From Candidatus Omnitrophota bacterium (GTDB taxonomy: Bacteria; Ratteibacteria; UBA8468; MWAK01): a stretch of 12,143 bases of DNA. Each line of letters begins with the position of its first letter. The first letter of the stretch is position 1. Shown piece by piece: positions 368 to 12,143 of the stretch. The notes beneath the pieces were generated by a model. The model saw nothing but the letters and a program-made list of their open reading frames with translations. It made no database searches and was not told the origin of the DNA. The stretch spans positions 1 through 12,143 of the forward strand of contig JAZDPL010000009.1 of assembly GCA_043797665.1 (NCBI GenBank), read 5' to 3'. Made by a program: the position numbers and the translations under genes.

Positions 368-396
368 TTGACAATGTAAATAATTTACGGTATAAT
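368..396 (+). promoter_or_regulatory. Consensus sigma70 promoter for the operon
   Basis: TTGACA (368-373), 17-bp spacer, TATAAT (391-396); both boxes are perfect. Confidence 0.9.
375..389. promoter_or_regulatory. Putative RpiR-family operator O1, in the promoter spacer
   Basis: TGTAAATAATTTACG with palindromic core GTAAAT-A-ATTTAC; resembles TGTA-N7-TACA boxes of HexR/RpiR regulators. Confidence 0.7.
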
Positions 397-404
397 TATT
401 ATAA

Positions 405-1301
405 ATGAAAATAATTTACAAACCGGACCGGACACAAAACTCCCATAACTGCCTCTCGCGCCTGAAAGTACTTGCCCTCAGTAAGTCCAAAACTTCAACC
501 GTTATCGCCAAATATCTTTTAGACCATACCCGAAATGTTACGCACCTGACCATCTCGGAACTCGCCCAAGAAATAGGGACCAGTGTGGCCACTATCTCCA
601 GATTCTGCAACCGCCTGGGCTACCGGAATTTTCGCACCTTCAGTCTGGCTCTGGCATCTTCGTTGGTCAACAACGGCTCTCCTATTTCTGACATCTTCCA
701 GCCCGGAGATAAGCCCGGGGCAATCGTGAAAAAGGCTTTTGCCATCAACCGCCAGAGCCTTTCCGATACCGAAGCCATCCTTAAAAACGACGAGGTAATC
801 TCGGTGGTGAAACTGTTCCGACGCAGGGGGAAGGTCTTCCTTTTCGGAATCGGCGGCTCCGGTCTGATTGCCAAAATCGGGGCGCTAAGATTTACCGCAC
901 TTGGTATAACTGCGTTAGCGATTTCTGACCCCTATGAGGGACTTCTATCTTTGACTTCAGGCACTAAAGACGACGTGGCGATTGGAATCAGCCATACCGG
1001 CCGGAGTGCCGGAACATTGAACCTGATAAGGTTAGCCCGGACCAAATGCCTCAAGACCGTGGGGATAACGAATTATCTGGATTCACCTCTGGCAAAATCG
1101 GTTGATTTCCTTCTTTTGACTTCATTTCCGGAGCGACGGGTAAATGCGGCGGTCTCTTCGTCCCGCATCGCCCAGATGTGCATTCTGGACGCCCTCTATT
1201 TTCTTACCGCTTACTATCAAGGTAAAAAGGCGGAAAGGGTTGCCCTGGATGTAGAAGTATCGGCCGAGAAGTTTTTACGATATGGGGTTGCTAAACAATA
1301 A
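405..1301 (+). CDS. MurR/RpiR-family transcriptional regulator (HTH + SIS domain)
   Basis: HTH LTISELAQEIGTSVATISRFCNRLGY; SIS motifs FGIGGSG, ISHTGRS, ITNYLDSPLAK and SSRIAQMCILDALY. Confidence 0.95.
   Translation: MKIIYKPDRTQNSHNCLSRLKVLALSKSKTSTVIAKYLLDHTRNVTHLTISELAQEIGTSVATISRFCNRLGYRNFRTFSLALASSLVNNGSPISDIFQPGDKPGAIVKKAFAINRQSLSDTEAILKNDEVISVVKLFRRRGKVFLFGIGGSGLIAKIGALRFTALGITALAISDPYEGLLSLTSGTKDDVAIGISHTGRSAGTLNLIRLARTKCLKTVGITNYLDSPLAKSVDFLLLTSFPERRVNAAVSSSRIAQMCILDALYFLTAYYQGKKAERVALDVEVSAEKFLRYGVAKQ
406..420. promoter_or_regulatory. Putative RpiR-family operator O2, overlapping the regulator start codon
   Basis: TGAAAATAATTTACA, 13/15 identical to O1 and offset by 31 bp. Confidence 0.65.
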
Positions 1302-1307
1302 AGGAGG
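1302..1307 (+). promoter_or_regulatory. Shine-Dalgarno site for the RLP gene
   Basis: AGGAGG ends 5 nt before ATG 1313. Confidence 0.8.
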
Positions 1308-1312
1308 AGAAG

Positions 1313-2659
1313 ATGTATGAACGGTACTATAATCCGGAGATTTTTGTCCAGACTTTTGATGGAATTGACCGGGACAACTACGTGGTTGCTACTTACTACA
1401 TGGATGATGTCCTTCCCGGCGAAGACTTTATCGACCATTTTACCCTGATTCAGGCAATGGCTTTAGAGGGTTCGACCGGAACTTGGGAAAAAGTAGCGGA
1501 GGACACCGCGGAGATGCGGCAGGTCTTTTCCAGTAAATTAGTCGGCTATTTTGAAATTCCAACCCCTGAACCAGATAGAAGGCAGGCGGTTGTTCAATTA
1601 GCTTTTCCCGTTGATGCCTGGGGCGACAATGTACCGATGATGCTCCTGGCCATTGCGGGAAACTGTTTTGCCTATAGTCCAAACTTGAGACTCCTTGACG
1701 TCTTTCTTCCCAAAAATTTTCTTGCCTTCTTCAAGGGACCAAAATTCGGTGTCCCCGGTATTCGGAAAATGCTTGGCGTACCGAAACGGCCCCTTTCGCT
1801 CCACATCATCAAACCAAAGATGGGTATGACCCCGCAGCAGGTGGCAAATCAATGTTATCAAACCGCCCTGGGCGGCGTGGATTTGATTAAGGACGATGAG
1901 ATGACCTCAGACGTATCCAACAACAACTATCTTGACCGGCTTAAAGCCGTAAGGGAAGCACTGGACAAGGCGGAATCAAAAACCGGGAAGAAAGTGATAT
2001 ATCTGCTAAGCATTACCCATGAACCCAAACAGATACTTGAACGTGCTTACAAAGCGGTGGAAGCCGGAGCAAACGGCCTTCTGGTAACCTATTCGGCGGG
2101 ATTGGGTTCTTTCCGTCAGCTGACGGAAGACCCCAAAATCAATGTCCCGGTTATGATGCACGGTTCCCATATGATTGCCGGGATGAAAAGCATCGCCTGG
2201 CCCGTATTTGCGAAGATGTGCCGGATATGCGGTGCGGATATGATGCTGACGCCCACGATGTGGTCTTCCATTCCGATGGTAAGTTTGGAAGAAGGCATCC
2301 GGACCAGCCAGGTGAAATTAGCACCGTTAGGACACATTAAGCCCACCTGGCCTATGCCGTGCGCCGGTGTCTATCCCGGGCTTGCCCCGGTCCTCATCGG
2401 CGAGTACGGATTGGATATCATCATACCGGCCGGCGGCGGAATGCTTGGCCATCCCGACGGATATACTGCGGGAGCAAAGGCGTGGCAGCAGGCAATTGCC
2501 GCGGTAATGTCTCCGGAGGAAAGTTTTCTGGATTTTGCCCGGAAACCTGAAAATAAAGAACTCCGCCGGGCGATTGAAAAGTGGGGCTACCTGGAAAGAC
2601 CTAAGTCTCCCTGGCTTCGGGTCGCACCAAAGTTTCATCCCAAAAAGATGGAGTTTTAA
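1313..2659 (+). CDS. RuBisCO-like protein (form IV RLP), not a CO2-fixing RuBisCO
   Basis: Has EGSTGTW, AGN, GPKFG, IIKPKMG, GGVDLIKDDE (carbamylated Lys/Mg motif) and AGGGMLGHPDG. Lacks equivalents of R295, H327 and loop-6 K334. Confidence 0.95.
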   Translation: MYERYYNPEIFVQTFDGIDRDNYVVATYYMDDVLPGEDFIDHFTLIQAMALEGSTGTWEKVAEDTAEMRQVFSSKLVGYFEIPTPEPDRRQAVVQLAFPVDAWGDNVPMMLLAIAGNCFAYSPNLRLLDVFLPKNFLAFFKGPKFGVPGIRKMLGVPKRPLSLHIIKPKMGMTPQQVANQCYQTALGGVDLIKDDEMTSDVSNNNYLDRLKAVREALDKAESKTGKKVIYLLSITHEPKQILERAYKAVEAGANGLLVTYSAGLGSFRQLTEDPKINVPVMMHGSHMIAGMKSIAWPVFAKMCRICGADMMLTPTMWSSIPMVSLEEGIRTSQVKLAPLGHIKPTWPMPCAGVYPGLAPVLIGEYGLDIIIPAGGGMLGHPDGYTAGAKAWQQAIAAVMSPEESFLDFARKPENKELRRAIEKWGYLERPKSPWLRVAPKFHPKKMEF

Positions 2660-4122
2660 TGAAAGGAACAAAAAAATTTCTCGCTTTTGACATCGGTGCC
2701 TCCAACGGCCGGGCAATGGCCGGTTTTTTTGACGGGGAAAAGATTATCCCTGAGGATATCCACCGGTTTGTAAATGAACCGGTCTTTGTCAACGAAAGTC
2801 TCCACTGGGATGTCTTGAGGATTTTTTCTGAGATGAAGACAGGGCTTTGCCTCTTTTCCAAGAAGTACGGCCGGGAACTCGACGGCATCGGGATTGATAC
2901 CTGGGGGGTTGACTTTGGACTCCTGGACAAAGATGGGAAATTGCTCAGTAATCCGTATCACTACCGGGATAACCGTACCGCCGGACTTGCGGAAGAGATA
3001 AAAGGAATGATTGACGGCTACGATATTTACCGAACAACCGGAGCGCAGATTACTTCTATCAGCACCCTGTGCCAGTTATATGCTATGGCAAAACAGAAAT
3101 CCCCGCAACTGAAAATAGCAAAAACCCTTCTGCTCATGCCCTCCCTGCTGAACTACTTTTTGAACGGGAAAATCTACGCGGAATATTCCAGCATCACACC
3201 GACCGGCCTCTTTGATATCGTCAGAAATAAACCCGCTTACAAATTCTTCCGGAGACTTGGTATTCCTCCCAATCTCATTCCCAAGGTTGTCCGGCCCGGG
3301 ACAATAATAGGGAGCCTGGAAAAAGTCCCCATTATTGCACCGGCAACCCACGATACCGCCAGTGCGGTCATCTCGGTTCCCGCGGACAGCGATAAAGAAT
3401 GGGCATTTTTAAGTTGTGGGACCTGGTCGGTCCTTGGTTTTGAATCCGGCCGACCGGTAACCACACCCGAAGCATACGGACAGGGGATTATCAATGTTGC
3501 CACTGCCGAAGGTAAGTTTGCCACGGTTGCGAATATTACCGGTCTGTGGCTCCTTCAGGAATGTAAAAGAATATGGGAGAATAACGGAACATTTCTAAAA
3601 TATCCGGAGATGGTGGAATTGGCAAAAAAGGCCCGGCCTTTTTCCGCACTTATAGACGTTGACCATCGTACCTTTGTCAGACCGGATAATATGCCCAATG
3701 CGATCGCGGATTTCTGCCGGAGAACAGACCAGCAACCTCCTTCTGATAAAGACGCTCTTATCCGTGTGGTCTTGGAAAGCCTGGCTTTGAAATACAAAGA
3801 GGCTAAAGATAAATTAGAACGGTTCCGGGGCAAAAAGTTTGAGGTCCTGCACCTGGTCGGAGGCGGGGCACACAACATACTTCTGTGCCAATTTACCGCC
3901 AATGCCTTAGGTATTCCTGTTCTGGCCGGTCCCTTTGAGGCAACCAGCCTGGGTAACATTCTGGCACAGATGGTTGGTGCTAAAGCAATCAGTTCTATTT
4001 CCGAAGGCCGCCGGATCTTGCGGAATTCCATAAAAGTTTCTCTTTATCAACCAAGGGATACCGAAAAGTGGACTGCGGAATACTACCGCTACCAAAAAAT
4101 TATTTCTAGGAAAATAATCTAA
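2659..4122 (+). CDS. Rhamnulokinase-like FGGY-family ketose kinase
   Basis: FDIGASNGR, GIDTWGVDFGLLD, YHYRDNRT, THDTASAV, SCGTWSVLG, NITGLWLLQE, VGGG and GPFEATSLGN. The ATG overlaps the RLP stop (TAATG). Confidence 0.93.
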   Translation: MKGTKKFLAFDIGASNGRAMAGFFDGEKIIPEDIHRFVNEPVFVNESLHWDVLRIFSEMKTGLCLFSKKYGRELDGIGIDTWGVDFGLLDKDGKLLSNPYHYRDNRTAGLAEEIKGMIDGYDIYRTTGAQITSISTLCQLYAMAKQKSPQLKIAKTLLLMPSLLNYFLNGKIYAEYSSITPTGLFDIVRNKPAYKFFRRLGIPPNLIPKVVRPGTIIGSLEKVPIIAPATHDTASAVISVPADSDKEWAFLSCGTWSVLGFESGRPVTTPEAYGQGIINVATAEGKFATVANITGLWLLQECKRIWENNGTFLKYPEMVELAKKARPFSALIDVDHRTFVRPDNMPNAIADFCRRTDQQPPSDKDALIRVVLESLALKYKEAKDKLERFRGKKFEVLHLVGGGAHNILLCQFTANALGIPVLAGPFEATSLGNILAQMVGAKAISSISEGRRILRNSIKVSLYQPRDTEKWTAEYYRYQKIISRKII

Positions 4123-4146
4123 TACAAACGCATTAAATATTTTAAC

Positions 4147-4223
4147 GTAGGGGTCGGATCCCTGTTTACTACACACAGGGACAGGTTTATCCGACCCGCG
4201 GGTTTGATAAATCAAACCCCTAC
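4147..4223. repeat. GTAG-type REP doublet 1 (77 bp) with a nested 27-bp hairpin insert
   Basis: GTAG-GGGTCGGA[TCCCTGTTTACTACACACAGGGACAGG]TTTATCCGACCC-GC-GGGTTTGAT-AA-ATCAAACCC-CTAC. Confidence 0.9.
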
Positions 4224-4254
4224 AAATGATGTAATATTACGAAAGGAGCCGAAT

Positions 4255-5232
4255 ATGCTTAAAAAGTTTAAATTGGGGGCTTGTCTTCCCGCATTCGGCT
4301 CTTGTGCCGATAGATATTGTCTTTCCGGATACGGCGGAGGCGGCAAGACCATGGAAGAGATGCTTGACTTAGCGGTCCAGGTGAAAGAACTTGACGGCCT
4401 GGAACTGGTAAGCAACTGGCATGTGAATGATAAAAACATCAATTATGTGCGAAAGATTTTCGCGGAAAATAATCTCAAGATTTGTATGGTGGTCCCTGAC
4501 CTGTGGACCCAGGCCAAATGGGGCAAGGGAAGCCTTGCCTCTAATAACCCCGGGATTCGCAGGGCGGCCATTGCCGAAATCAAAAAATCCATGGATTGGG
4601 CGGAAGGATTAGGGTGCGGGTACATTGACGTCTGGCCCGGACAGGATGGTTTTGATTACCCCTTTCAGGCAAACTTTCCGGATGCCTGGAAGTACTTGCG
4701 CGACGGAATTGCGGAATGTTCGGTCTACAACAAAAAGGTACGACTTCTGGTGGAGTACAAACTCAAAGAACCCCGGACACACTGTTTTATAAACAGCGCG
4801 GCCAAGACCATTCTGCTCCTGCAGGGTCTTAAAAATGTCGGATGCCTCCTTGACGTGGGTCACAGCCTTGCCTCCGGCGAGAACATGGCTGAGGCGGCCG
4901 CACTCCTTGCCGATTACGGAATGCTGGATTACCTGCATCTTAATGACAACTACCGGCTCTGGGACGACGACATGCTGGTCGGAGCAGTAAATATTCCGGA
5001 ATACCTGGAATTAGTCTTCTGGCTCTGGGAACTGGATTATTCCGGGTGGCTGACCCTGGACATTTTCCCGTATCGCGAAGAAAAAATACCCGCGGTCAGA
5101 AACTGTTTTGAATGGTTAAACGCCCTTTTTACTGCGGTGGAAAGAATCGGACTGGAGAAAATTCAGCAGGTGATTCAAAAGGGGGATGCCAACGAGTCGT
5201 CCCGCCTTGTCCGGGAAATGCTTTTCAAGTAG
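4255..5232 (+). CDS. Xylose isomerase-family (TIM barrel) aldose-ketose isomerase, substrate unknown
   Basis: VWPGQDG, VEYKLKEPR, LDVGHS, HLND, DDD and LDIFP metal/substrate motifs. Start moved from TTG 4204 (inside a REP) to ATG 4255, which has AAGGAG at 4243-4248. Confidence 0.88.
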   Translation: MLKKFKLGACLPAFGSCADRYCLSGYGGGGKTMEEMLDLAVQVKELDGLELVSNWHVNDKNINYVRKIFAENNLKICMVVPDLWTQAKWGKGSLASNNPGIRRAAIAEIKKSMDWAEGLGCGYIDVWPGQDGFDYPFQANFPDAWKYLRDGIAECSVYNKKVRLLVEYKLKEPRTHCFINSAAKTILLLQGLKNVGCLLDVGHSLASGENMAEAAALLADYGMLDYLHLNDNYRLWDDDMLVGAVNIPEYLELVFWLWELDYSGWLTLDIFPYREEKIPAVRNCFEWLNALFTAVERIGLEKIQQVIQKGDANESSRLVREMLFK

Positions 5233-5305
5233 GGGTTCGATCCCTGTTTAACCCATACAGGGACATGTTTATCGAACCCGCGGGCGCCATAAATGGCGCC
5301 CCTAC
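5229..5305. repeat. GTAG-type REP doublet 2 (77 bp) with a nested 27-bp insert; supplies the isomerase stop codon
   Basis: GTAG-GGGTTCGA[TCCCTGTTTAACCCATACAGGGACATG]TTTATCGAACCC-GC-GGGCGCCAT-AA-ATGGCGCCC-CTAC; TAG 5230-5232 is the stop. Confidence 0.9.
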
Positions 5306-5337
5306 ATTGAGAAATTCGTATTCTCACGGGAATTAAA

Positions 5338-6306
5338 ATGGAAAACAAGATATCCTCAAAAATCCTCCTTGACATGTACCGGAAGATGAAGGAGATTCGC
5401 CATTTTGAAGATACCGTGTATTTCATGTTCCTGGAAGGTATCCTTCCCGGAACGGTGCATCTCTACCAGGGTCAGGAAGCAATTGCGGCCGGCGTCTGTG
5501 CAAATTTGACCAGAGAGGACGTGATTCTCTCCACGCACCGGCCCGATGGCCACGCCATCGCCAAAGGGGTATCCTTGCGTTCCTGCATGGCAGAATTCTT
5601 CGGCAAAGCCACCGGCTGCTGCAAGGGAAAGGGCGGCGCCATGCACCTGGGCGATATTGAGGTGGGCATGCCTCCGGCGATTGCGATTGTTGCCGGAGGA
5701 GTACCGCTTGCCTGCGGTGCCGGCCTGGCGTTCAAATTCCAGAAGAAAAAGAATGTGGCGGTAACCTTCTTCGGTGATGGGGCTACCAACGAAGGGGTGT
5801 GGCACGAGTCTATGAATATGGCTTCCCTCTGGGACTTACCGGTAATATTTGTCTGCGAGAATAACCTTTACGGCGCCTCAACCCACATTACCAGGGTGAT
5901 GAAAATACCGGATATCGCCAAGCGTGCCGATGCCTACGGGATACCCGGATTGGCGGTGGATGGAAATAACGTAATAGAAGTATACAAAACAACCCGGAAT
6001 GCGGTGGAAAAAGCAAAAGCGGGTGACGGTCCTACCTTGATTGAATGCAAGACCTACCGGAGAAGCGGACATTCCCGGGGGGACGCAAACCAATACCGGG
6101 ATAAAGACGAAGAAAAAGAGTGGCTGGCAAGAGACCCCATTATCATTGCTCAAAACAGGCTGAAGGACCTGGGAATTCTTACGGAAGAGAAGATCAAAAA
6201 GATTGACGAAGAAGTAAAGGCGGAAATAGAAGAAGCGGTTCAATTTGCTAAAAACAGTCCTTTTCCGGCAATAGAAGATGCCGGCGAAGACCTCTGGGCA
6301 GAATAA
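5338..6306 (+). CDS. TPP-dependent dehydrogenase E1 alpha subunit (AcoA/PdhA-like)
   Basis: HLYQGQEA, STHRPDGH, GKGGAMH, TPP motif GDGATNEG...CENNLY, VDGNN and TYRRSGHSRGD. Confidence 0.95.
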   Translation: MENKISSKILLDMYRKMKEIRHFEDTVYFMFLEGILPGTVHLYQGQEAIAAGVCANLTREDVILSTHRPDGHAIAKGVSLRSCMAEFFGKATGCCKGKGGAMHLGDIEVGMPPAIAIVAGGVPLACGAGLAFKFQKKKNVAVTFFGDGATNEGVWHESMNMASLWDLPVIFVCENNLYGASTHITRVMKIPDIAKRADAYGIPGLAVDGNNVIEVYKTTRNAVEKAKAGDGPTLIECKTYRRSGHSRGDANQYRDKDEEKEWLARDPIIIAQNRLKDLGILTEEKIKKIDEEVKAEIEEAVQFAKNSPFPAIEDAGEDLWAE

Positions 6307-6314
6307 AAAAAGTA

Positions 6315-6347
6315 TGTCATTCCCGCGGATAATAAGCGGGAATCCAG
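6315..6347. repeat. YGTC-type / dRS3-like palindromic repeat
   Basis: TGTC-ATTCCCGC-GGATAATAA-GCGGGAAT-CCAG resembles the GTCATTCCCGC...GCGGGAATCCA repeat family. Confidence 0.7.
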
Positions 6348-6359
6348 AATAAGGAACAG

Positions 6360-7373
6360 ATGCCAAGGTTGACTTATGTCCAGGCCTTAAGAGAGGCAAT
6401 CAGGGAAGAGATGCAGCGCGACCAACGGGTCTTCTGTATCGGTGAGGATATCGGTATCACCAAGGGGTTCGGCGGTGCCTTTACCGTAACCTTAGACCTT
6501 TCCGAGGAATTTGGTCACGAAAGAATTCTGGATACCCCTATTTCCGAAGCCGGATTCCTCGGCATCGCCATCGGTGCGGCAATGATGGGAATGCGGCCCA
6601 TCGCCGACGTCCAGTACGGTGACTTCCTCTTTTGTGCCATGGACCAGATTGTCAACCAGGCAGGTAAACTGCGCTATATGTCCGGCGGCAAAGTAAAAGT
6701 CCCCCTTGTCCTGCGTGCGCCGGTGGGCGCAACCCAGCGGGGAGCCCAGCACAGCCAGTCGGTGGAGTCATACTTCACCCACTGTCCCGGCTGGAAAATT
6801 GCCTGTCCCGCCAACGCTTACGACGCAAAGGGCCTTCTTAAGACCGCAATCCGGGACGACAACCCGGTCCTCTTCTTTGAACATAAAAAACTTTACGGCG
6901 CCAAAGGTATCCGGAAAGTAGAGGGAAGTTTAGATGCCTCATCCGAAGTACCGGACCAGGAGTATCTCATACCTTTTGGGAAGGCGCAAATCGTCCGGCC
7001 AGGACAGGACGTTACCATACTTGCCAACCTGCGGATGGTTTACGAATCATTGGCAGCCGCGGAAGAGTTAAGCCGGGAAGGCATTGAGGCTGAGGTGATT
7101 GACCCGCGGACCCTTATTCCTTTTGATTACCGGACCCTGGCCGATTCCCTGAAGAAGACCCACCGCCTGGTAATCGTCCATGAGGACAATCTTACCGGCG
7201 GCTGGGCCAGCGAGATTTCTGCCCGGGTCTGCAGTGAGATGTTTGATTATCTTGACGCGCCAATCCAGAGGGTCTGCGCACCGGATACGCCGGTCCCTTT
7301 TTCGCCGCCGCTGGAAAAGTCTTATCTCCCGGACAAGGAGAAAATTAAAAAAACGATAAAAAATTTGTGGTAG
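6360..7373 (+). CDS. TPP-dependent dehydrogenase E1 beta subunit (AcoB/PdhB-like)
   Basis: GEDIG, DTPISEAG, GMRPI, DQIVNQAGK, AQHSQ, PVLFFEHK, EVIDPRTL and YLDAPIQRV. Confidence 0.95.
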   Translation: MPRLTYVQALREAIREEMQRDQRVFCIGEDIGITKGFGGAFTVTLDLSEEFGHERILDTPISEAGFLGIAIGAAMMGMRPIADVQYGDFLFCAMDQIVNQAGKLRYMSGGKVKVPLVLRAPVGATQRGAQHSQSVESYFTHCPGWKIACPANAYDAKGLLKTAIRDDNPVLFFEHKKLYGAKGIRKVEGSLDASSEVPDQEYLIPFGKAQIVRPGQDVTILANLRMVYESLAAAEELSREGIEAEVIDPRTLIPFDYRTLADSLKKTHRLVIVHEDNLTGGWASEISARVCSEMFDYLDAPIQRVCAPDTPVPFSPPLEKSYLPDKEKIKKTIKNLW

Positions 7374-7419
7374 GGGTCGGATTTATCCGACCCGCGGGCT
7401 CAATGAAGTGAGCCCCTCC
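7370..7419. repeat. GTAG-type REP doublet 3 (50 bp); supplies the E1 beta stop codon
   Basis: GTAG-GGGTCGGAT-TT-ATCCGACCC-GC-GGGCTCAAT-GA-AGTGAGCCC-CTCC. The right unit is slightly degenerate; TAG 7371-7373 is the stop. Confidence 0.88.
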
Positions 7420-7476
7420 AGTTTCTTAAAAAGGAAATTCCTATACAATTAAATTTAACGGAAGGTGCGATAGAAC

Positions 7477-10245
7477 ATGGTTGAATTGAACAAGCGGCTT
7501 CCGGTGCGGGTGAACCCCATCTTACGACATCAATACGAACAGCCTTTAACCCTGAACGGTAAATGGTCTTTTCGGCTTGACCCGGAAGATAAGGGTAAGA
7601 GCCTGCAGTGGTTTAAAAAGCCGGAGGTTTTTAAAGATAGAATTACGGTACCGGGTTGCTGGCAGGGTCAGGGTTTTGGTAATAAGGACAAAGATGAGAT
7701 ATGGGATTTCAAGATTCAGGCACGGGTATTTCGCGCCACCTATCACGGCACCGGTTGGTACGGTAAAAACTTCCGGGTACCCGGAAAATGGAAAAGGGAG
7801 AAAATCTGGTTAAATCTTGGCGGCGTATTTCCTTCCGCGGAGTTCTGGCTGAACGGGAAAAAACTGGGCAGGCATTCCGGACCTTTTGTTCCGTTCGCTT
7901 TTGATGTTACCGATATCGTCTCTTCTGAAAATGACAATTTCTTAGCCGTACGGATTTATGAAGAAAACCGCTGGCTTGGACTTGCTTATAACTGGCAGGG
8001 TTATTGGTCCGGCCTTTACCGAAGTGTGTATCTGTCAACAACCGGTAAATCCTGGTTGGAACGTTTCTGGATTTATCCGGATGTGGATGGCAAAAGACTT
8101 AAGTTTCACATTAGGTTAGGGGGGAATCCGGAACCAACCAGTCTGGCCATTAAGGTTTCTCCTGTTGCCGGCAATCCGGCAGCGGAAATTACCAGAAATA
8201 TAAGCAAGACCGGAGAAATACGTTTTGGATTGCCAATCCCCTCTCCGAAACTCTGGTCTCCGGATGAACCAAACCTTTACCGGGTGGATGCCCTCCTCTA
8301 CGCCGGGAAAGAGATTCTTGACGCCCTGGTAGAACGGTCTGGATTTGTAAAGATTTCGACCAAAGGAAAGCATTTTCTTATCAATGACCAGCCTTATTAT
8401 CTCAGGGGCACCGGAGATTTCGCCGGTAACCCGGAGACCGGCAGTCCGGATACGGACCGTGATAGATGGCGGAAGAAATTAACCGCCCTCAAGAACTACG
8501 GCTATAACTATGTCCGCTGCCAGTCTTATGTGCCGGCGCCTGAGTATTACGACGTTGCGGATGAGGTGGGCTTACTGATTCAAGGCGAGATGGGCATGCT
8601 CGGAGCCTGGGGTGGAGCAAACATCCGGCACATATATGCCTGGCCCCAGCCGCTGCCGGAATACAGAAAATGGCTCCGGTTTCAATGGGACAATACCGTA
8701 ATGCGGGACGTAAACCATCCTTCAGCCAATATCTATTGTATGAGCAACGAACTGGGTCAGCAAACTCTATTTCCTCAAACCGCCTGGCAGTGTTATCGGA
8801 CAACGAAGAAAATTAAACCTTCCGCTCTCGTCATCTGGACCGATGGCGGATATAATGCAAAACTACCGGCCGATTTCATAAATGCGGAAGCCAAGATAGA
8901 TAAAGAATCTTCTCTGCCGGTAATCCAGCACGAGTTTCGCTGGTGGAGCGCTTATCCGGATATCAGAATTAAAGATAAGTATCGGGGTGCGGTCCGGCCA
9001 TATGCAATTGAGATCGCTGAAGAGGCTGCGGCTGCCAACAGAATGGCCGGCCTTTTACCCCTGGCGGCGCAAAATAGCCAAAGTCTACAGTACTTGGAGG
9101 CAAAGACGAAACTGGAAAACTGCCGCCGGGACAACCCAAAACTTGCGGGTATCTGCCATTTTAACGCTATGGATATTGGTCTTTCGCCCCAGGGCATAGT
9201 AGATGAATTTTACGAGACCAAATATGCGGAACCTGAGACCTGGCGGCAGACAAACGGTGACACGGTGATATTGATAGACCGGAATTTTGCCGACCGTATT
9301 CTGATTGGAGGGGAGTTATTTCAAACCACCTTATCTCTTTCCGATTTCTCCCATCCACCCCTCAGGAATCCTGAGTGTGAATGGAAATTGACCGAAGGTA
9401 AAAGATGCCTTGCTTCCGGAAAACTTACCTTCCGAGCCAAACCTTTCCAGACGCACCCCTTAGGGAAAATAGGGGTGGTTTTACCTGAGACGGCAAAGCC
9501 CCTGACCATAAAACTTCAGGCGATGATATGCGAGGGTAAACGGGCTTTTTCTAACCAGTGGAATTTCTGGATTTTCCCCAAAGACTCTAAACTCCCCGAA
9601 TCCGTAGGCATATATGGCCGGCCGAAAAATACCTGGTTAAAAAGACTGAAAAATATTCCTTGTTTATTTCCCGATAATCTTTTTACGGGAAATATGCCTC
9701 CGGTGATTATGACCGAAATCTTTGACGAAAATATGTCTAAATATGCTTCTAAGGGCGGCCGGATTCTCCTGAGCGCTTCCGAAGATTTGGTTCGGCCTTT
9801 TCATCCTAAACTTGGCTTAACAGAAGGCCGCTACTTCTTCCTGCCGCCGGCAAATTATCCGCCCTATGAAGATGGCCACACCGGAACCCTCGTTCAGAAC
9901 CATCCGGCGTTAGGAGATTTTCCCCACGAGGGATTCTGCGGACTGCCGTTCTATCGTATGATTGCCGAATCTCCACCGGTCAGTTTGAACTCTTTTGGCT
10001 CTTTATCCCGGGAGCCGGTAATCAGAGTCTTTGGTACCTATGTTTGTTGTCAACAGTTAGCTTACTTAATGGAATTTTCCTATGGCAAAGGCGGTATTAT
10101 TATCTGTAGTCTTGACCTCAACCCCAATTTTCCGGAAGCCAGATACCTACTCTATACCATACTCCAATACGCGTCCGGTAATAGATTTCGGCCGAAAGAA
10201 CGCCTTTCCGGAAAGGGATTTCAACATCTAATACAAATGACTTAA
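7477..10245 (+). CDS. Glycoside hydrolase family 2 protein, probably cytoplasmic
   Basis: LNGKWSFRLDP, TVPGCW, GWY, WLNG...PFAFDVT, LWSPDEPNLY, FLINDQPYYLRG, GYNYVR, ADEVGLLI; acid/base NHPS...SNE; putative nucleophile PVIQHEF. No signal peptide is visible. Confidence 0.9.
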   Translation: MVELNKRLPVRVNPILRHQYEQPLTLNGKWSFRLDPEDKGKSLQWFKKPEVFKDRITVPGCWQGQGFGNKDKDEIWDFKIQARVFRATYHGTGWYGKNFRVPGKWKREKIWLNLGGVFPSAEFWLNGKKLGRHSGPFVPFAFDVTDIVSSENDNFLAVRIYEENRWLGLAYNWQGYWSGLYRSVYLSTTGKSWLERFWIYPDVDGKRLKFHIRLGGNPEPTSLAIKVSPVAGNPAAEITRNISKTGEIRFGLPIPSPKLWSPDEPNLYRVDALLYAGKEILDALVERSGFVKISTKGKHFLINDQPYYLRGTGDFAGNPETGSPDTDRDRWRKKLTALKNYGYNYVRCQSYVPAPEYYDVADEVGLLIQGEMGMLGAWGGANIRHIYAWPQPLPEYRKWLRFQWDNTVMRDVNHPSANIYCMSNELGQQTLFPQTAWQCYRTTKKIKPSALVIWTDGGYNAKLPADFINAEAKIDKESSLPVIQHEFRWWSAYPDIRIKDKYRGAVRPYAIEIAEEAAAANRMAGLLPLAAQNSQSLQYLEAKTKLENCRRDNPKLAGICHFNAMDIGLSPQGIVDEFYETKYAEPETWRQTNGDTVILIDRNFADRILIGGELFQTTLSLSDFSHPPLRNPECEWKLTEGKRCLASGKLTFRAKPFQTHPLGKIGVVLPETAKPLTIKLQAMICEGKRAFSNQWNFWIFPKDSKLPESVGIYGRPKNTWLKRLKNIPCLFPDNLFTGNMPPVIMTEIFDENMSKYASKGGRILLSASEDLVRPFHPKLGLTEGRYFFLPPANYPPYEDGHTGTLVQNHPALGDFPHEGFCGLPFYRMIAESPPVSLNSFGSLSREPVIRVFGTYVCCQQLAYLMEFSYGKGGIIICSLDLNPNFPEARYLLYTILQYASGNRFRPKERLSGKGFQHLIQMT

Positions 10246-10265
10246 GTAATTTTACATCAAAAACC

Positions 10266-10315
10266 GTAGGGGCTTGATTTATCAAGCCCGCGGGTCGGAT
10301 GAATCCGACCCCTAC
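10266..10315. repeat. GTAG-type REP doublet 4 (50 bp)
   Basis: GTAG-GGGCTTGAT-TT-ATCAAGCCC-GC-GGGTCGGAT-GA-ATCCGACCC-CTAC. Confidence 0.92.
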
Positions 10316-10332
10316 ATAAAGGTTTTAAGTAA

Positions 10333-11148
10333 ATGAATAAAGTAGCCGAGTTAATAGAGAGATATACCTCGGAAAAGAAGAAGGTGAAATTTTTTGATGC
10401 TAACTCCTGGCTGGGTGCGCCTGTTCCGGGCTCATTAAGGAAAGTCCCGGAGAAAACAGCGGAGATTTTAGAGGTAATGAACGATTACGGAATAGAAAAG
10501 GCGGTGGTTGCGGATTCCCTGACTTTAAACTATAACGCCGCCTACGGAAATGAAAGGCTCTTAAAGGAGATAGGGAAGAACGAGAGGTTATATGCGGCGG
10601 CGATACTTTTACCTGATGGTACCGAAGAATCAGGTAACCTCTCCGACTATCTCTCCTTTCTTACCAGCCATAAGGTGGTAATGGTAAAACTCTTTCCTAA
10701 AGTTCATAATTTTGTCCTTTCTGACTACTGCAGCGGAAGACTGTTGAGATTGTTGGAGGAACGAAAAATCCCGGTAACCCTCTGGCATACCCAGACGGAA
10801 TGGAATGAGGTTGACAGGTTATGTGAAACCTATCCCCATATCCCGATTATAATAGAAGGAGTGGCCAGAAAACTCTTTTATGATACCAGAATCTTCTACC
10901 CTTTACTTGCGAAACACCGGAATTTATTTCTGGAATCTCACAGCCTGACAAATTATCTGGGTCTGGACGATATAGTCAAGAAATTCGGTGCCGGGAAAGT
11001 CATCTTTGGAACATTCATACCGGAAAATGACCCTGAAGCTGCTTTAATGCCAATTGTCTACGGGAATTTCACACTTAAAGAGAAGCAGATGATTGCCTCA
11101 GGTAATTTGTTATCACTGATTGAAAATATTGAGGAACAAAATTCATGA
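10333..11148 (+). CDS. Amidohydrolase-fold protein (Amidohydro_2-like) with a degenerate metal site
   Basis: Family pattern MNDYGIEKAVV, GNERL, FGAGKVIFGT and IASGNL. DANSW replaces DxHxH and FGTF replaces FGSD. Confidence 0.8.
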   Translation: MNKVAELIERYTSEKKKVKFFDANSWLGAPVPGSLRKVPEKTAEILEVMNDYGIEKAVVADSLTLNYNAAYGNERLLKEIGKNERLYAAAILLPDGTEESGNLSDYLSFLTSHKVVMVKLFPKVHNFVLSDYCSGRLLRLLEERKIPVTLWHTQTEWNEVDRLCETYPHIPIIIEGVARKLFYDTRIFYPLLAKHRNLFLESHSLTNYLGLDDIVKKFGAGKVIFGTFIPENDPEAALMPIVYGNFTLKEKQMIASGNLLSLIENIEEQNS

Positions 11149-11930
11149 ATCCCAAAATTGATTATATAGTTGATGCACATGCACACATAGGTTATGTCAA
11201 CAATCTTTACGCTCCGGATGTTTCAGTTGAAAGTATATTAAGTATGATGAATAAGTTACATGTAGACAAAATGCTTCAGACGCATACCATTTTGTTTTGT
11301 GATGAATATGAAATAGGAGTAAATGAATCAGTTGAAGCATTTGAGAAATCTTCAGGAAGGATTCTTTCTTACCTGGTATTTAATCCGCGCCAGCCTGAGA
11401 AGAGCCTGAAGTCCATCGATGAGAACATCCGCCAGGAACCGTTTATCGGGATAAAAATTCATCCTTCAATTCATCTCTATCCGGCGGATGGAGAAGGTTA
11501 TGAGAGAATCTGGAAATATGCCTCAGAAAACAAGACTGTTCTCCTGAGCCATTCCTGGGCCATCTCTCCGGTAAATCCCAGCCAGTCTTATTCCCAGGTG
11601 AAATTATTCGAGAGATATCTGAAAAAATATCCGGAAGTGAACCTGGTTTTAGGCCACAGCGGTGGTTTAAAAGAAGGAATTCGCAAGGCAGTGGAACTGG
11701 CTAAAATTTATCCCCACCTCTACCTTGATATTGCCGGAGATATCCTCTTTTTCGGTCTCATCGAATTTTTGGTAGAAAGCATAGGGGCAGACCGAATCCT
11801 TTTTGGCTCGGATTTAACAATGCTCGACCCGAGAATAAACTTAAGTAGAGTGCTTATGGCAAAGATTGATTTAGAAGCTAAAAGAAAAATATTAGGCTTG
11901 AATGCTTGCAATGTTTTTGGATTATTATGA
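11145..11930 (+). CDS. Amidohydrolase-family protein (Amidohydro_2-like) with intact metal ligands
   Basis: VDAHAH, GIKIHP, LSHS, LGHSG, GADRILFGSD and ILGLNA. ATGA overlap with the upstream gene. Confidence 0.92.
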   Translation: MNPKIDYIVDAHAHIGYVNNLYAPDVSVESILSMMNKLHVDKMLQTHTILFCDEYEIGVNESVEAFEKSSGRILSYLVFNPRQPEKSLKSIDENIRQEPFIGIKIHPSIHLYPADGEGYERIWKYASENKTVLLSHSWAISPVNPSQSYSQVKLFERYLKKYPEVNLVLGHSGGLKEGIRKAVELAKIYPHLYLDIAGDILFFGLIEFLVESIGADRILFGSDLTMLDPRINLSRVLMAKIDLEAKRKILGLNACNVFGLL

Positions 11931-12053
11931 ATATGACTGAAAAAGAAATAGTAAAACATACATTGGTACATAAAAAGACACCGAAAGTACCATACTACCT
12001 GAAAAAAAGCGTGAAAAATGATATTTCCTTTAACAATAAATAGCCGGATTAGA

Positions 12054-12082
12054 TTGTAACTACTATGAAAATTGCATATAAT
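12054..12082 (+). promoter_or_regulatory. Possible sigma70 promoter for a gene beyond the window
   Basis: TTGTAA (12054-12059), 17-bp spacer, TATAAT (12077-12082). The region is AT-rich, so a chance match is possible. Confidence 0.5.
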
Positions 12083-12143
12083 ATTAGCGACAAAACCCCT
12101 CTGGCAGAACCCTACTTAAAAAGTAGCATTGTGCCCGATGCCC

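Follow-up and report, generated by a model that had tools for sequence, protein, structure and literature searches.

Organisation of the locus

The window analysed here, a 12,143-nucleotide (nt) stretch from a Candidatus Omnitrophota bacterium, corresponds to an entire contig (JAZDPL010000009.1, hereafter C66) of a genome (G000) that is 86% complete, and contains an operon in which the gene for a RuBisCO-like protein (RLP) lies among genes of sugar catabolism. Nine intact open reading frames (ORFs), all on the plus strand between positions 405 and 11930, were assigned to families with Pfam and NCBIfam (Table 1). They encode an RpiR-family regulator, the RLP, an FGGY kinase, an isomerase, the alpha and beta subunits of a thiamine pyrophosphate (TPP)-dependent E1 enzyme, a family 2 glycoside hydrolase (GH2) and two amidohydrolases (AH1 and AH2), in agreement with an earlier note on this DNA, which had described a single co-oriented cluster of these families. 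The translational coupling of RLP and kinase proposed in that note was also recovered, the RLP stop codon overlapping the kinase start by 1 nt; the reading frames of AH1 and AH2 overlap by 4 nt. No aldolase or NAD-dependent dehydrogenase domain was found in the window, again as previously stated. The 5' edge of the operon is real, because a tmRNA gene and a promoter with 12 of 12 consensus matches precede rpiR. The contig stops in the end of an insertion sequence (IS) and the 3' extent of the operon is therefore cut; the operon may continue past the IS-cut frame that starts at position 11927. Full-text literature searches, covering few subscription papers and theses, gave no description of this gene combination, which the earlier note had not recognised either; the module is real and conserved, and apparently undescribed.

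Table 1. Features of the window (positions on the forward strand of the contig).
Feature	Position	Strand	Remarks
tmRNA, 5' end cut by contig edge	1..307	+	Rfam RF00023, 106 bits; upstream bound, outside operon
Sigma-70-type promoter, 12/12 consensus matches, 17-nt spacer	368..396	+	2 sites, versus 0.3 expected in shuffles
Palindrome, candidate RpiR operator within promoter spacer	375..389	.	Second copy at 406-420, over rpiR start
RpiR-family regulator, helix-turn-helix and SIS sugar-phosphate sensor	405..1301	+	No ribosome-binding site (RBS); in 64/134 related loci
RLP, uncharacterised clade	1313..2659	+	Mg/carbamate and 1-phosphate sites kept; distal-phosphate site and loop-6 Lys lost
RhaB/FucK-type FGGY kinase, predicted ketose 1-kinase	2659..4122	+	TIGR02627, 403.5 bits; PDB 4C23 and 2CGJ matches
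Xylose-isomerase-fold (TIM barrel) aldose-ketose isomerase, own clade	4255..5232	+	ATG with RBS; TTG at 4204 a possible alternative
TPP-dependent E1 alpha, distinct clade	5338..6306	+	HRP-x-GH, PAIAIV and GHSR motifs
E1 beta partner	6360..7373	+	NF006667, 357 bits (cut-off 321)
GH2 glycoside hydrolase, accessory, non-core	7477..10245	+	4/134 related loci
AH1, amidohydrolase fold, weak match below cut-off	10333..11148	+	Accessory amino-sugar module
AH2, amidohydrolase, predicted de-N-acylase	11145..11930	+	Accessory module; overlaps AH1
End of multicopy insertion sequence	11997..12143	.	Truncates short frame starting at 11927
REP-like GTAG palindromes	4147..4223, 5229-5305, 7370-7419, 10266-10315	.	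Four intergenic gaps

Conservation of the module

Conservation was assessed over 134 related loci, comprising 54 GTDB loci, which cover 13 named phyla, and the best 80 of 446 metagenome matches. They cannot be treated as independent, since some hardly differ and two genomes each supply several; many are short. Counts were also made over the 47 long loci, those with 3 kb or more of sequence upstream and 7 kb or more downstream. The isomerase was present at 84 of the 134 loci (a second isomerase clade at 11), E1 alpha at 78, the kinase at 73, E1 beta at 70, a lipoyl E2 at 68 and RpiR at 64. Among the long loci, 40 had the isomerase, 36 E1, 33 E2 and 29 the kinase; isomerase and E1 occurred together at 32, isomerase, E1 and kinase at 21, and none of these at three. 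Close RLP homologues thus do co-occur with the isomerase, kinase and E1, which was the neighbourhood check suggested in the earlier note. The backbone proposed there, from isomerase to kinase, RLP and TPP enzyme, holds as a gene set, with the chemistry of the RLP step still conjectural; the idea that GH2 frees an unusual aldose for it fares poorly, this gene being non-core (4/134).

Among 201 Terriglobia genomes sampled blind, four (one of them the seed) contained the RLP clade, and these four also contained the isomerase clade, on the same contig; the other 197 had neither. The grouping of the two clades is therefore not due to chance. The three non-seed Terriglobia loci have the order RpiR-RLP-kinase-isomerase-URO-D.

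Phylogenetic placement and active site of the RLP

The RLP matches PF00016 and PF02788 above cut-off, which places it in form IV of the RuBisCO superfamily, and it is not a carboxylating RuBisCO of forms I-III (form III model, 214 bits; cut-off 497). At least 1192 relatives were obtained at E ≤ 1e-30 (8000 candidates scored), the 120 matches listed being 68-100% identical; identity within the clade is 50-89% across 13 phyla, mostly of uncultured bacteria. Scores lay below both cut-offs for MtnW, the methionine-salvage enolase (258 versus 409 bits and 210 versus 514 bits), and below that of the OiaX model NF042437 (143.5 versus 700 bits). In a FastTree phylogeny of 77 rows (12 cluster proteins, 60 of 97 full-length representatives and five references), the RLP fell within a 14-row clade with a support value of 99, apart from MtnW, the photosynthesis-linked RLP and the DUF1537-linked RLPs. 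The RLP is therefore not the standard MtnW or OiaX orthologue that, according to the earlier note, would have undone its proposal. PDB 3QFW, which we take to be an R. palustris-type RLP, matched with E 1e-28, well below MtnW. Many JGI records of proteins of this clade carry an MtnW enolase label, which the placement corrects. A plasmid search returned no member of the clade (best match 33%), and a search of the ESM Atlas returned generic RuBisCO clusters only. A second, divergent RLP (27%) is encoded on another contig of G000 (C33; L059:477-6224), in a run with a SIS isomerase, a class II fructose-bisphosphate aldolase (FBA-II), an E1 pair and a TIM-barrel epimerase.

The predicted model of the RLP (mean local confidence, pLDDT, 90.5) superimposes on MtnW and other RLPs with a template-modelling (TM) score of 0.81, at about 30% identity. 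With residue positions assigned from alignments to PDB sequences, the metal, carbamate and 1-phosphate residues were conserved among 100 aligned members: the KDDE Mg/carbamate motif was invariant (100/100), and E52, N117, K167, K169, K193, D195, E196 and H283 were kept in 99-100 sequences. Asn117, present in all 100, occupies the position of the Lys of MtnW (the N123 position). The Arg and His that bind the second phosphate in RuBisCO and the Lys of loop 6 (presumably R295, H327 and K334 in spinach numbering) are replaced by G284, L312 and S319, with L312 in 100/100 and S/T319 in 100/100 members. Having lost these residues, which in RuBisCO serve the second phosphate and CO2, the site fits a monophosphate with a non-polar tail.

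Kinase and isomerase

The kinase scored 403.5 bits against TIGR02627 (RhaB), for which the cut-off is 528, and thus is not classed as RhaB; the RhaB motifs GIQF and NEGG are altered in it and in most cluster kinases, and the catalytic HDT is kept in the window kinase. Judged from these matches, it is nonetheless predicted to work like RhaB/FucK, a kinase group that makes ketose 1-phosphates according to a passage of PMC3245297. Its similarity to AplK, taken from E. coli by the locus tag given in a section of PMC13001218, was limited to one 56-residue match (E 1.6e-4), and no AplK or AptA orthologue was found among the 134 related loci. Five RhaB-like kinases are encoded in G076, the complete genome behind locus L044, which suggests several deoxysugar routes in that organism.

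The isomerase clade comprised 28 of 36 tree rows, with support values of 99/99, separate from the 3KTC-type group, so that the protein is not a D-apiose isomerase of that type. Its nearest solved relative is nevertheless PDB 3KTC (TM 0.92), which we take to be the apiose isomerase ApsI, followed by the L-rhamnose isomerase of P. stutzeri (TM 0.90). The metal-binding residues (Glu, Lys, Asp, His and Asp-x-Asp) expected of two-metal isomerases of the xylose-isomerase fold are present: E167, K169, D200, H203, H228, D237, D239 and D269 were invariant in 32 of 32 sequences. Elsewhere, a 3KTC-type gene occurs together with split transketolase genes and with the gene for a kinase that shares 41% identity with E. 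coli AplK.

E1, lipoyl E2 and E3

The E1 alpha subunit scored below both pyruvate dehydrogenase (PDH) cut-offs (363 versus 394 bits and 258 versus 411 bits), and there was no AcoA structure among the PDB matches. RLP-linked E1 alpha subunits formed a clade of 68 of the 83 tree rows (support 98), which includes one RLP-free copy of G000 located beside GH2 and GH106 genes; their motifs are unlike those of PDH and of seven of the eight other E1 alpha copies of G000. E2 was present at 33 of the 36 long loci with E1, and L044 has, in addition, E3 and PduL. The lipoyl motif was recognised in 48 and the His motif in 46 of 55 E2 ORFs. With E1 alpha and beta, a lipoyl E2 and an available E3, the system has the architecture of a 2-oxoacid/acetoin dehydrogenase complex. 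The E2 gene is not in the window, and G000 has a single E2 (C40) and a single E3 (C82) for nine E1 alpha/beta pairs (C30, C33, C40, C43, C61, C62, C66, C73 and C74) in sugar, polyol and amine contexts; the window E1 would therefore borrow E2 and E3. Because E2 accompanies E1 at 33 of 36 long loci, and E3 at one locus, the TPP step is likely oxidative, yielding an acyl-CoA. The C-C cleavage by a TPP enzyme envisaged in the earlier note is accordingly kept as regards the enzyme, which belongs to the backbone, and altered as regards the cleavage, probably oxidative given the lipoyl E2.

A separate set, consisting of a KynB-like cyclase, a second E1 pair (of another clade) and a HAD phosphatase, adjoins the RLP cluster at L014, L119, L121, L132, L136 and L146, and stands alone in G000 at L063 (C61).

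A counterpart cluster without RLP

The E1 family was detected in 17 of the 201 Terriglobia genomes. Among eight of the 16 non-seed genomes, which were fetched for inspection, seven had genes for a D-lyxose isomerase, a PfkB kinase and an FBA-II-fold protein adjoining E2-E1 (L254-L259 and L261, in G273, G151, G149, G197, G209, G267 and G275), and five had GH38. In the FBA-like proteins (six aligned), the Asp-His motif reads Asn-Glu and two other His ligands remain; the roles of these residues are assumed to be those of canonical FBA-II enzymes. In G267, the counterpart E1 alpha is 76% identical to an RLP-linked one and is followed by LsrF. An exclusive association of the E1 family with the RLP was thus rejected, the same family occurring in RLP-free genomes and in this cluster. 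Two sets thus precede the same E1 family: an L-manno set (rhamnosidases, RhaM/RhaT, RhaB-type kinase and RLP) and a probable D-manno set (GH38, lyxose isomerase, PfkB and the altered FBA-II). Of all observations, this occurrence of a metal-enediolate enzyme ahead of the same E1 in two settings hints most strongly that E1 receives its substrate from the RLP. The counterpart itself looks like a second undescribed pathway.

Aldolases, microcompartments and LsrF

Aldolase-fold genes were counted with profiles built from sequences gathered during this work, so that the seed loci match by construction. Class II aldolases were found at 11 of the 134 loci, class I/LsrF at 11, FBA-II at six and HpcH at two, with any of these at 27; among the long loci, 16 of 47 carry an aldolase-fold gene. 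The absence of an aldolase stressed in the earlier note therefore holds for the window and for 31 of the 47 long loci, and fails for the remaining 16; two class II aldolase-family genes also lie outside the window in G000. At L009, L032 and L044, an aldolase, an acylating aldehyde dehydrogenase and microcompartment genes are in a run with RLP/E1/E2, and LsrF directly follows E1 beta at L035, L049 and the RLP-free L259. As aldolase/microcompartment genes and LsrF share operons with RLP/E1/E2, sequential steps fit better than redundant ones. LsrF orthologues also lie within about 3 kb of aldolase-dehydrogenase fusions in G052 (C63), G055 (C53) and G080 (C73), from lineages that are not known to take up autoinducer 2.

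Clues to the substrate

RhaM, RhaT, GH78, GH106 or RhaA genes were present at 19 of the 134 loci and 16 of the 47 long loci, and at L052 the cluster adjoins RhaA, RhaM and GH78. A canonical rhamnose isomerase (RhaA or RhaI-type, the latter counted at E ≤ 1e-40, with four of 12 above cut-off) was nonetheless found elsewhere in 32 of 43 cluster genomes. This recurrence of rhamnose-type neighbours in genomes already equipped for rhamnose indicates that the substrate is likely a modified rhamnose, and weakens plain L-rhamnose as the purpose of the module. Five GH106 genes are present in G000. A RhaD-dehydrogenase fusion was detected in 11 of the 43 genomes, with two above cut-off (best 20 candidates per genome), and carries little weight.

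The two amidohydrolases, which the earlier note had listed in the cluster, were accompanied by a class III aminotransferase at 11 of 11 loci, and belong to a separate amino-sugar module; a short-chain dehydrogenase/reductase (SDR) was present at nine of these 11 loci and the second isomerase at nine. The block (aminotransferase, two amidohydrolases, SDR and second isomerase) occurs at RLP loci such as L096, L106 and L127 and, with RhaM, GH106 and RhaT, at a locus without RLP (L189, in G145:C7). Contig C73 of G000 carries the second isomerase, SDR and aminotransferase, the remaining parts of the block. The block may serve to feed N-acyl-amino analogues of rhamnose into the pathway.

Another contig of G000 (C87; L239) contains four URO-D-like genes, an ADP-ribosylglycohydrolase-like gene, RhaM and an apiosidase-like gene, which are 57-61% identical to RLP neighbours in other genomes; this locus is likely a satellite of the RLP system.

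Proposed pathway and alternatives

A modified sugar of the L-rhamnose type is the likely substrate of the operon. The data show which genes are present, how far they are conserved, the families to which they belong and the residues of their active sites; the substrate and every reaction proposed below are inferred from these. The ketose 1-phosphate of a modified 6-deoxyhexose would be formed by the isomerase and kinase and then rearranged at the Mg site of the RLP to a 3-keto acyloin, which E1/E2 would oxidise; we consider this general frame, in which the RLP makes the acyloin, rather probable. A more specific version, which we put forward tentatively and at less than an even chance, takes the modification to be a 3-C-methyl branch of the evalose type. 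The RLP might then move the C4-C6 chain from C3 to C2 by an alpha-ketol 1,2-shift; the product would be a tertiary acyloin resembling methylacetoin, which E1, with shared E2/E3, would cleave oxidatively to acetyl-CoA and a 5-deoxy-pentulose 1-phosphate. AcoAB/C/L, according to an excerpt of PMC3744081, cleaves methylacetoin to acetone and acetyl-CoA. The route could be completed to dihydroxyacetone phosphate (DHAP) and a second acetyl-CoA by enzymes encoded in the locus or elsewhere, either a class II aldolase together with a microcompartment or the LsrF thiolase together with a dehydrogenase; the C4-oxidised form of 5-deoxy-pentulose 1-phosphate is the LsrF substrate named by NF006081.

The 3-C-methyl branch is preferred because it would explain the apiose-type isomerase family, the need for E1/E2 and the later aldolase or LsrF step. 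Support for a branch at C3 also comes from the occurrence of the 3KTC family in an apiose arrangement, with split transketolase and AplK-like kinase, apiose being branched at C3. The widest form of the proposal, in which a skeletal rearrangement by the RuBisCO family debranches 3-C-methyl deoxysugars of microbial cell walls, feeds an E1/E2/E3 complex acting on sugar phosphates and is mirrored by the D-manno FBA-II-fold enzyme, is more speculative. If this widest form were true, it would add a new RLP reaction, a new class of E1 substrate and a catabolic route for C-methyl sugars; no such route was found in the literature searched.

Several observations weigh against the branched version or the module as conceived here. 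The fit is after the fact, the C3 branch is read from sequence relationships, and the catalytic core of the RLP would suit a simple C3-H abstraction equally well. 3-C-methyl sugars are called rare in a passage of PMC12961483, and the module is widespread; an alkyl shift by an RLP was not found in the portions of the literature searched. The isomerase clade is only 33-36% identical to the 3KTC-type group, and canonical RhaB motifs are retained in the cluster kinases of L017, L020, L021, L032, L049 and L052. No canonical rhamnose isomerase was found in G000 (86% complete), where plain rhamnose is a possible substrate. E1 is missing from 11 of the 47 long loci, and three Terriglobia loci carry RLP-kinase-isomerase without E1 within about 8 kb; conversely, 13 of the 17 Terriglobia genomes with the E1 family have no RLP. 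Most long loci (31/47) have no aldolase-fold gene. LsrF is present in 17 of the 43 cluster genomes and in none of the four Terriglobia carriers, versus 22 of 201 Terriglobia overall (this count, and possibly other tallies over the sample, includes the unpublished genome G169), and was rejected as an obligatory next step.

A migration of the carbonyl group without skeletal change is possible and nearly as likely as the branched version. The substrate would be an unbranched 6-deoxyhexose epimer or 3-O-methyl- or 3-amino-rhamnose, from which the RLP would remove C3-H. The carbonyl would thereby shift to C3, with methanol or ammonia leaving where C3 bears a substituent, or further to C4 in the manner of the R. 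rubrum RLP; E1/E2 would then yield lactaldehyde and 3-phosphoglyceroyl-CoA, or glyceraldehyde 3-phosphate and lactoyl-CoA. Such chemistry is known for RLPs (parts of PMC6302742 and PMC10176493), and the full enolisation core is conserved. URO-D/MtaA-like genes recur at related loci, with a corrinoid protein at two, and may indicate O-methyl sugars, and an FBA-II fold without the Asp-His motif in the counterpart suits proton transfer better than aldol cleavage. However, this scheme leaves the aldolase and microcompartment genes beside RLP/E1/E2 at L009, L032 and L044 unexplained, and no conserved thioesterase, CoA-transferase or aldehyde dehydrogenase for the predicted products was found among the recurrent neighbours. 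A return to rhamnulose 1-phosphate after demethylation would make E1/E2 superfluous, and the score of 3QFW, taken as R. palustris-type, against the RLP is low.

It is unlikely that the RLP is itself the missing aldolase, cleaving C3-C4 through an Mg-enediolate with release of lactaldehyde, the fragment oxidised by E1/E2 then being other than DHAP owing to a C3 substituent. The exchange of the RLP for an FBA-II-fold protein ahead of the same E1 family would fit, and so would the microcompartment and aldehyde dehydrogenase genes at three to four loci; D- and L-series sugars would give the same fragment. Nevertheless, aldehyde dehydrogenase occurs at just four of the 134 loci, the FBA-like partner does not have the canonical Asp, and class II aldolases are retained at the 11 RLP loci mentioned above.

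We rate just as low a role of the RLP as a C3 epimerase or repair isomerase feeding the rhamnose/fucose aldolase route, with E1/E2 a co-regulated pyruvate/acetoin-type dehydrogenase for downstream lactate or pyruvate. An E1 beta above the PDH E1 beta cut-off, the long loci without E1 and the varied sugar contexts of the nine E1 pairs of G000 are consistent with this role, and part of PMC7325909 considers most RLPs likely isomerases or epimerases. The linked E1 alpha subunits nonetheless form one clade with motifs unlike PDH and unlike most other G000 copies, in the RLP-free counterpart, too, the family adjoins a kinase, and a dedicated E2 travels with E1.

A C3-branched or 5-deoxy pentose (apiose, aceric acid or 5-deoxyribose/methylthioribose) is a still less probable substrate. 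With aceric acid, the RLP would be an OiaX-like decarboxylase; with 5-deoxyribose or methylthioribose, it would make a product resembling 1-deoxyxylulose 5-phosphate, from which E1/E2 would form acetyl-CoA and glyceraldehyde 3-phosphate. The proximity of the isomerase to 3KTC favours such a sugar, as do apiosidase-like PF13204 genes at 11 of the 134 loci and GH127 and GH28 at three each. Against this, the kinase is unlike AplK, the RhaM, RhaT and GH78/GH106 neighbours indicate a pyranose, and the OiaX model score is far below its cut-off. The ketoses of apiose, aceric acid and 5-deoxyribose/methylthioribose have no 5-OH and cannot form the furanose bound by RhaB.

Finally, an MtnW lying beside sugar genes by chance is very improbable, for although the best hidden Markov model, PDB-sequence and fold matches are all MtnW, the scores, Asn117 and the separate clade speak against it, and mtnX/mtnB/mtnD-like genes, present in a Priestia control locus, are not among the recurrent neighbours of the 134 loci.

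Relationship to known systems

In its predicted working, the module combines elements of three known systems, the rhamnose and apiose routes and acetoin dehydrogenase. It shares with the L-rhamnose and L-fucose routes (RhaA-RhaB-RhaD and FucI-FucK-FucA) an isomerase followed by a RhaB/FucK-type ketose 1-kinase, and RhaM, RhaT and rhamnosidase neighbours at its related loci; it differs in the clade of its isomerase and in having RLP and E1/E2 where these routes have an aldolase, and most of its carriers (32/43) have a canonical isomerase in addition. D-apiose pathway I, attributed to Carter et al. 2018, consists of ApsI, AplK and AptAB (sections of PMC13001218 and PMC6302742). Its likeness to the module lies in the isomerase family (taking 3KTC to be ApsI), an FGGY kinase and a two-subunit TPP enzyme; the module has instead a RhaB-like kinase, E1 with lipoyl E2 rather than a split transketolase, and an inserted RLP.

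Among RLPs, the R. rubrum enzyme (methylthioribulose 1-phosphate 1,3-isomerase), compared by description, would resemble the proposed one in that it moves the carbonyl of a ketose 1-phosphate whose tail is non-polar, but the module has no methionine-salvage or cupin context. OiaX/OiaT (apionate) and the DUF1537-linked RLPs are alike in that a C-C bond next to a 2-keto 1-phosphate is broken or moved via an Mg-enediolate; they act on acids made by dehydrogenases, with DUF1537 kinases, and lie in a separate clade. MtnW (form IV-YkrW; PDB 2OEK and 2ZVI) provides the closest solved fold, with a similar loss of distal-phosphate residues, whereas the window RLP has Asn for the catalytic Lys, keeps K169 and belongs to another clade and context. 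Part of PMC7325909 mentions an RLP whose neighbours include an epimerase and a DeoR domain, and which has relatives in Spirochaetes and Planctomycetes. AcoABCL, the acetoin/methylacetoin dehydrogenase, likewise combines E1 alpha/beta, lipoyl E2 and E3 and converts an acyloin to acyl-CoA and an aldehyde or ketone; the E1 alpha motifs of the module are distinct, and linkage to a sugar kinase suggests a phosphorylated substrate.

According to a passage of PMC10176493, the reaction is known for only a handful of RLPs. The clade described here comes with upstream and downstream enzymes, so that its function is accessible to assays of a few sugars with five purified proteins. Whichever of the three best-rated readings applied, it would imply a reaction or substrate new to RLPs, together with an E1/E2 complex cleaving a sugar phosphate, and would reveal microbial recycling of decorated 6-deoxysugars.

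Other features of the contig

The exact palindrome TGTAA-N-TTACA lies upstream of rpiR at 12 of 53 related loci, and RpiR may bind it; a shared operator was not found, at one mismatch, at the satellite loci on C4, C61, C73 and C87. The rpiR mRNA is possibly leaderless. The REP-like pattern has 452 matches genome-wide (both strands counted), one of them inside the IS. The IS end of C66 is common to nine other contigs; joining of C66 to C73 across the IS was not supported, the target duplications disagreeing. The frame following AH2 (11927-11998), cut by the IS after 24 residues, resembles a URO-D-family N-terminus by eye only. Positions 1-305 of the window are 98.7% identical to a tmRNA copy at the end of contig C57, after which the contigs diverge; the two copies reflect either strain variation or an island inserted at the tmRNA.

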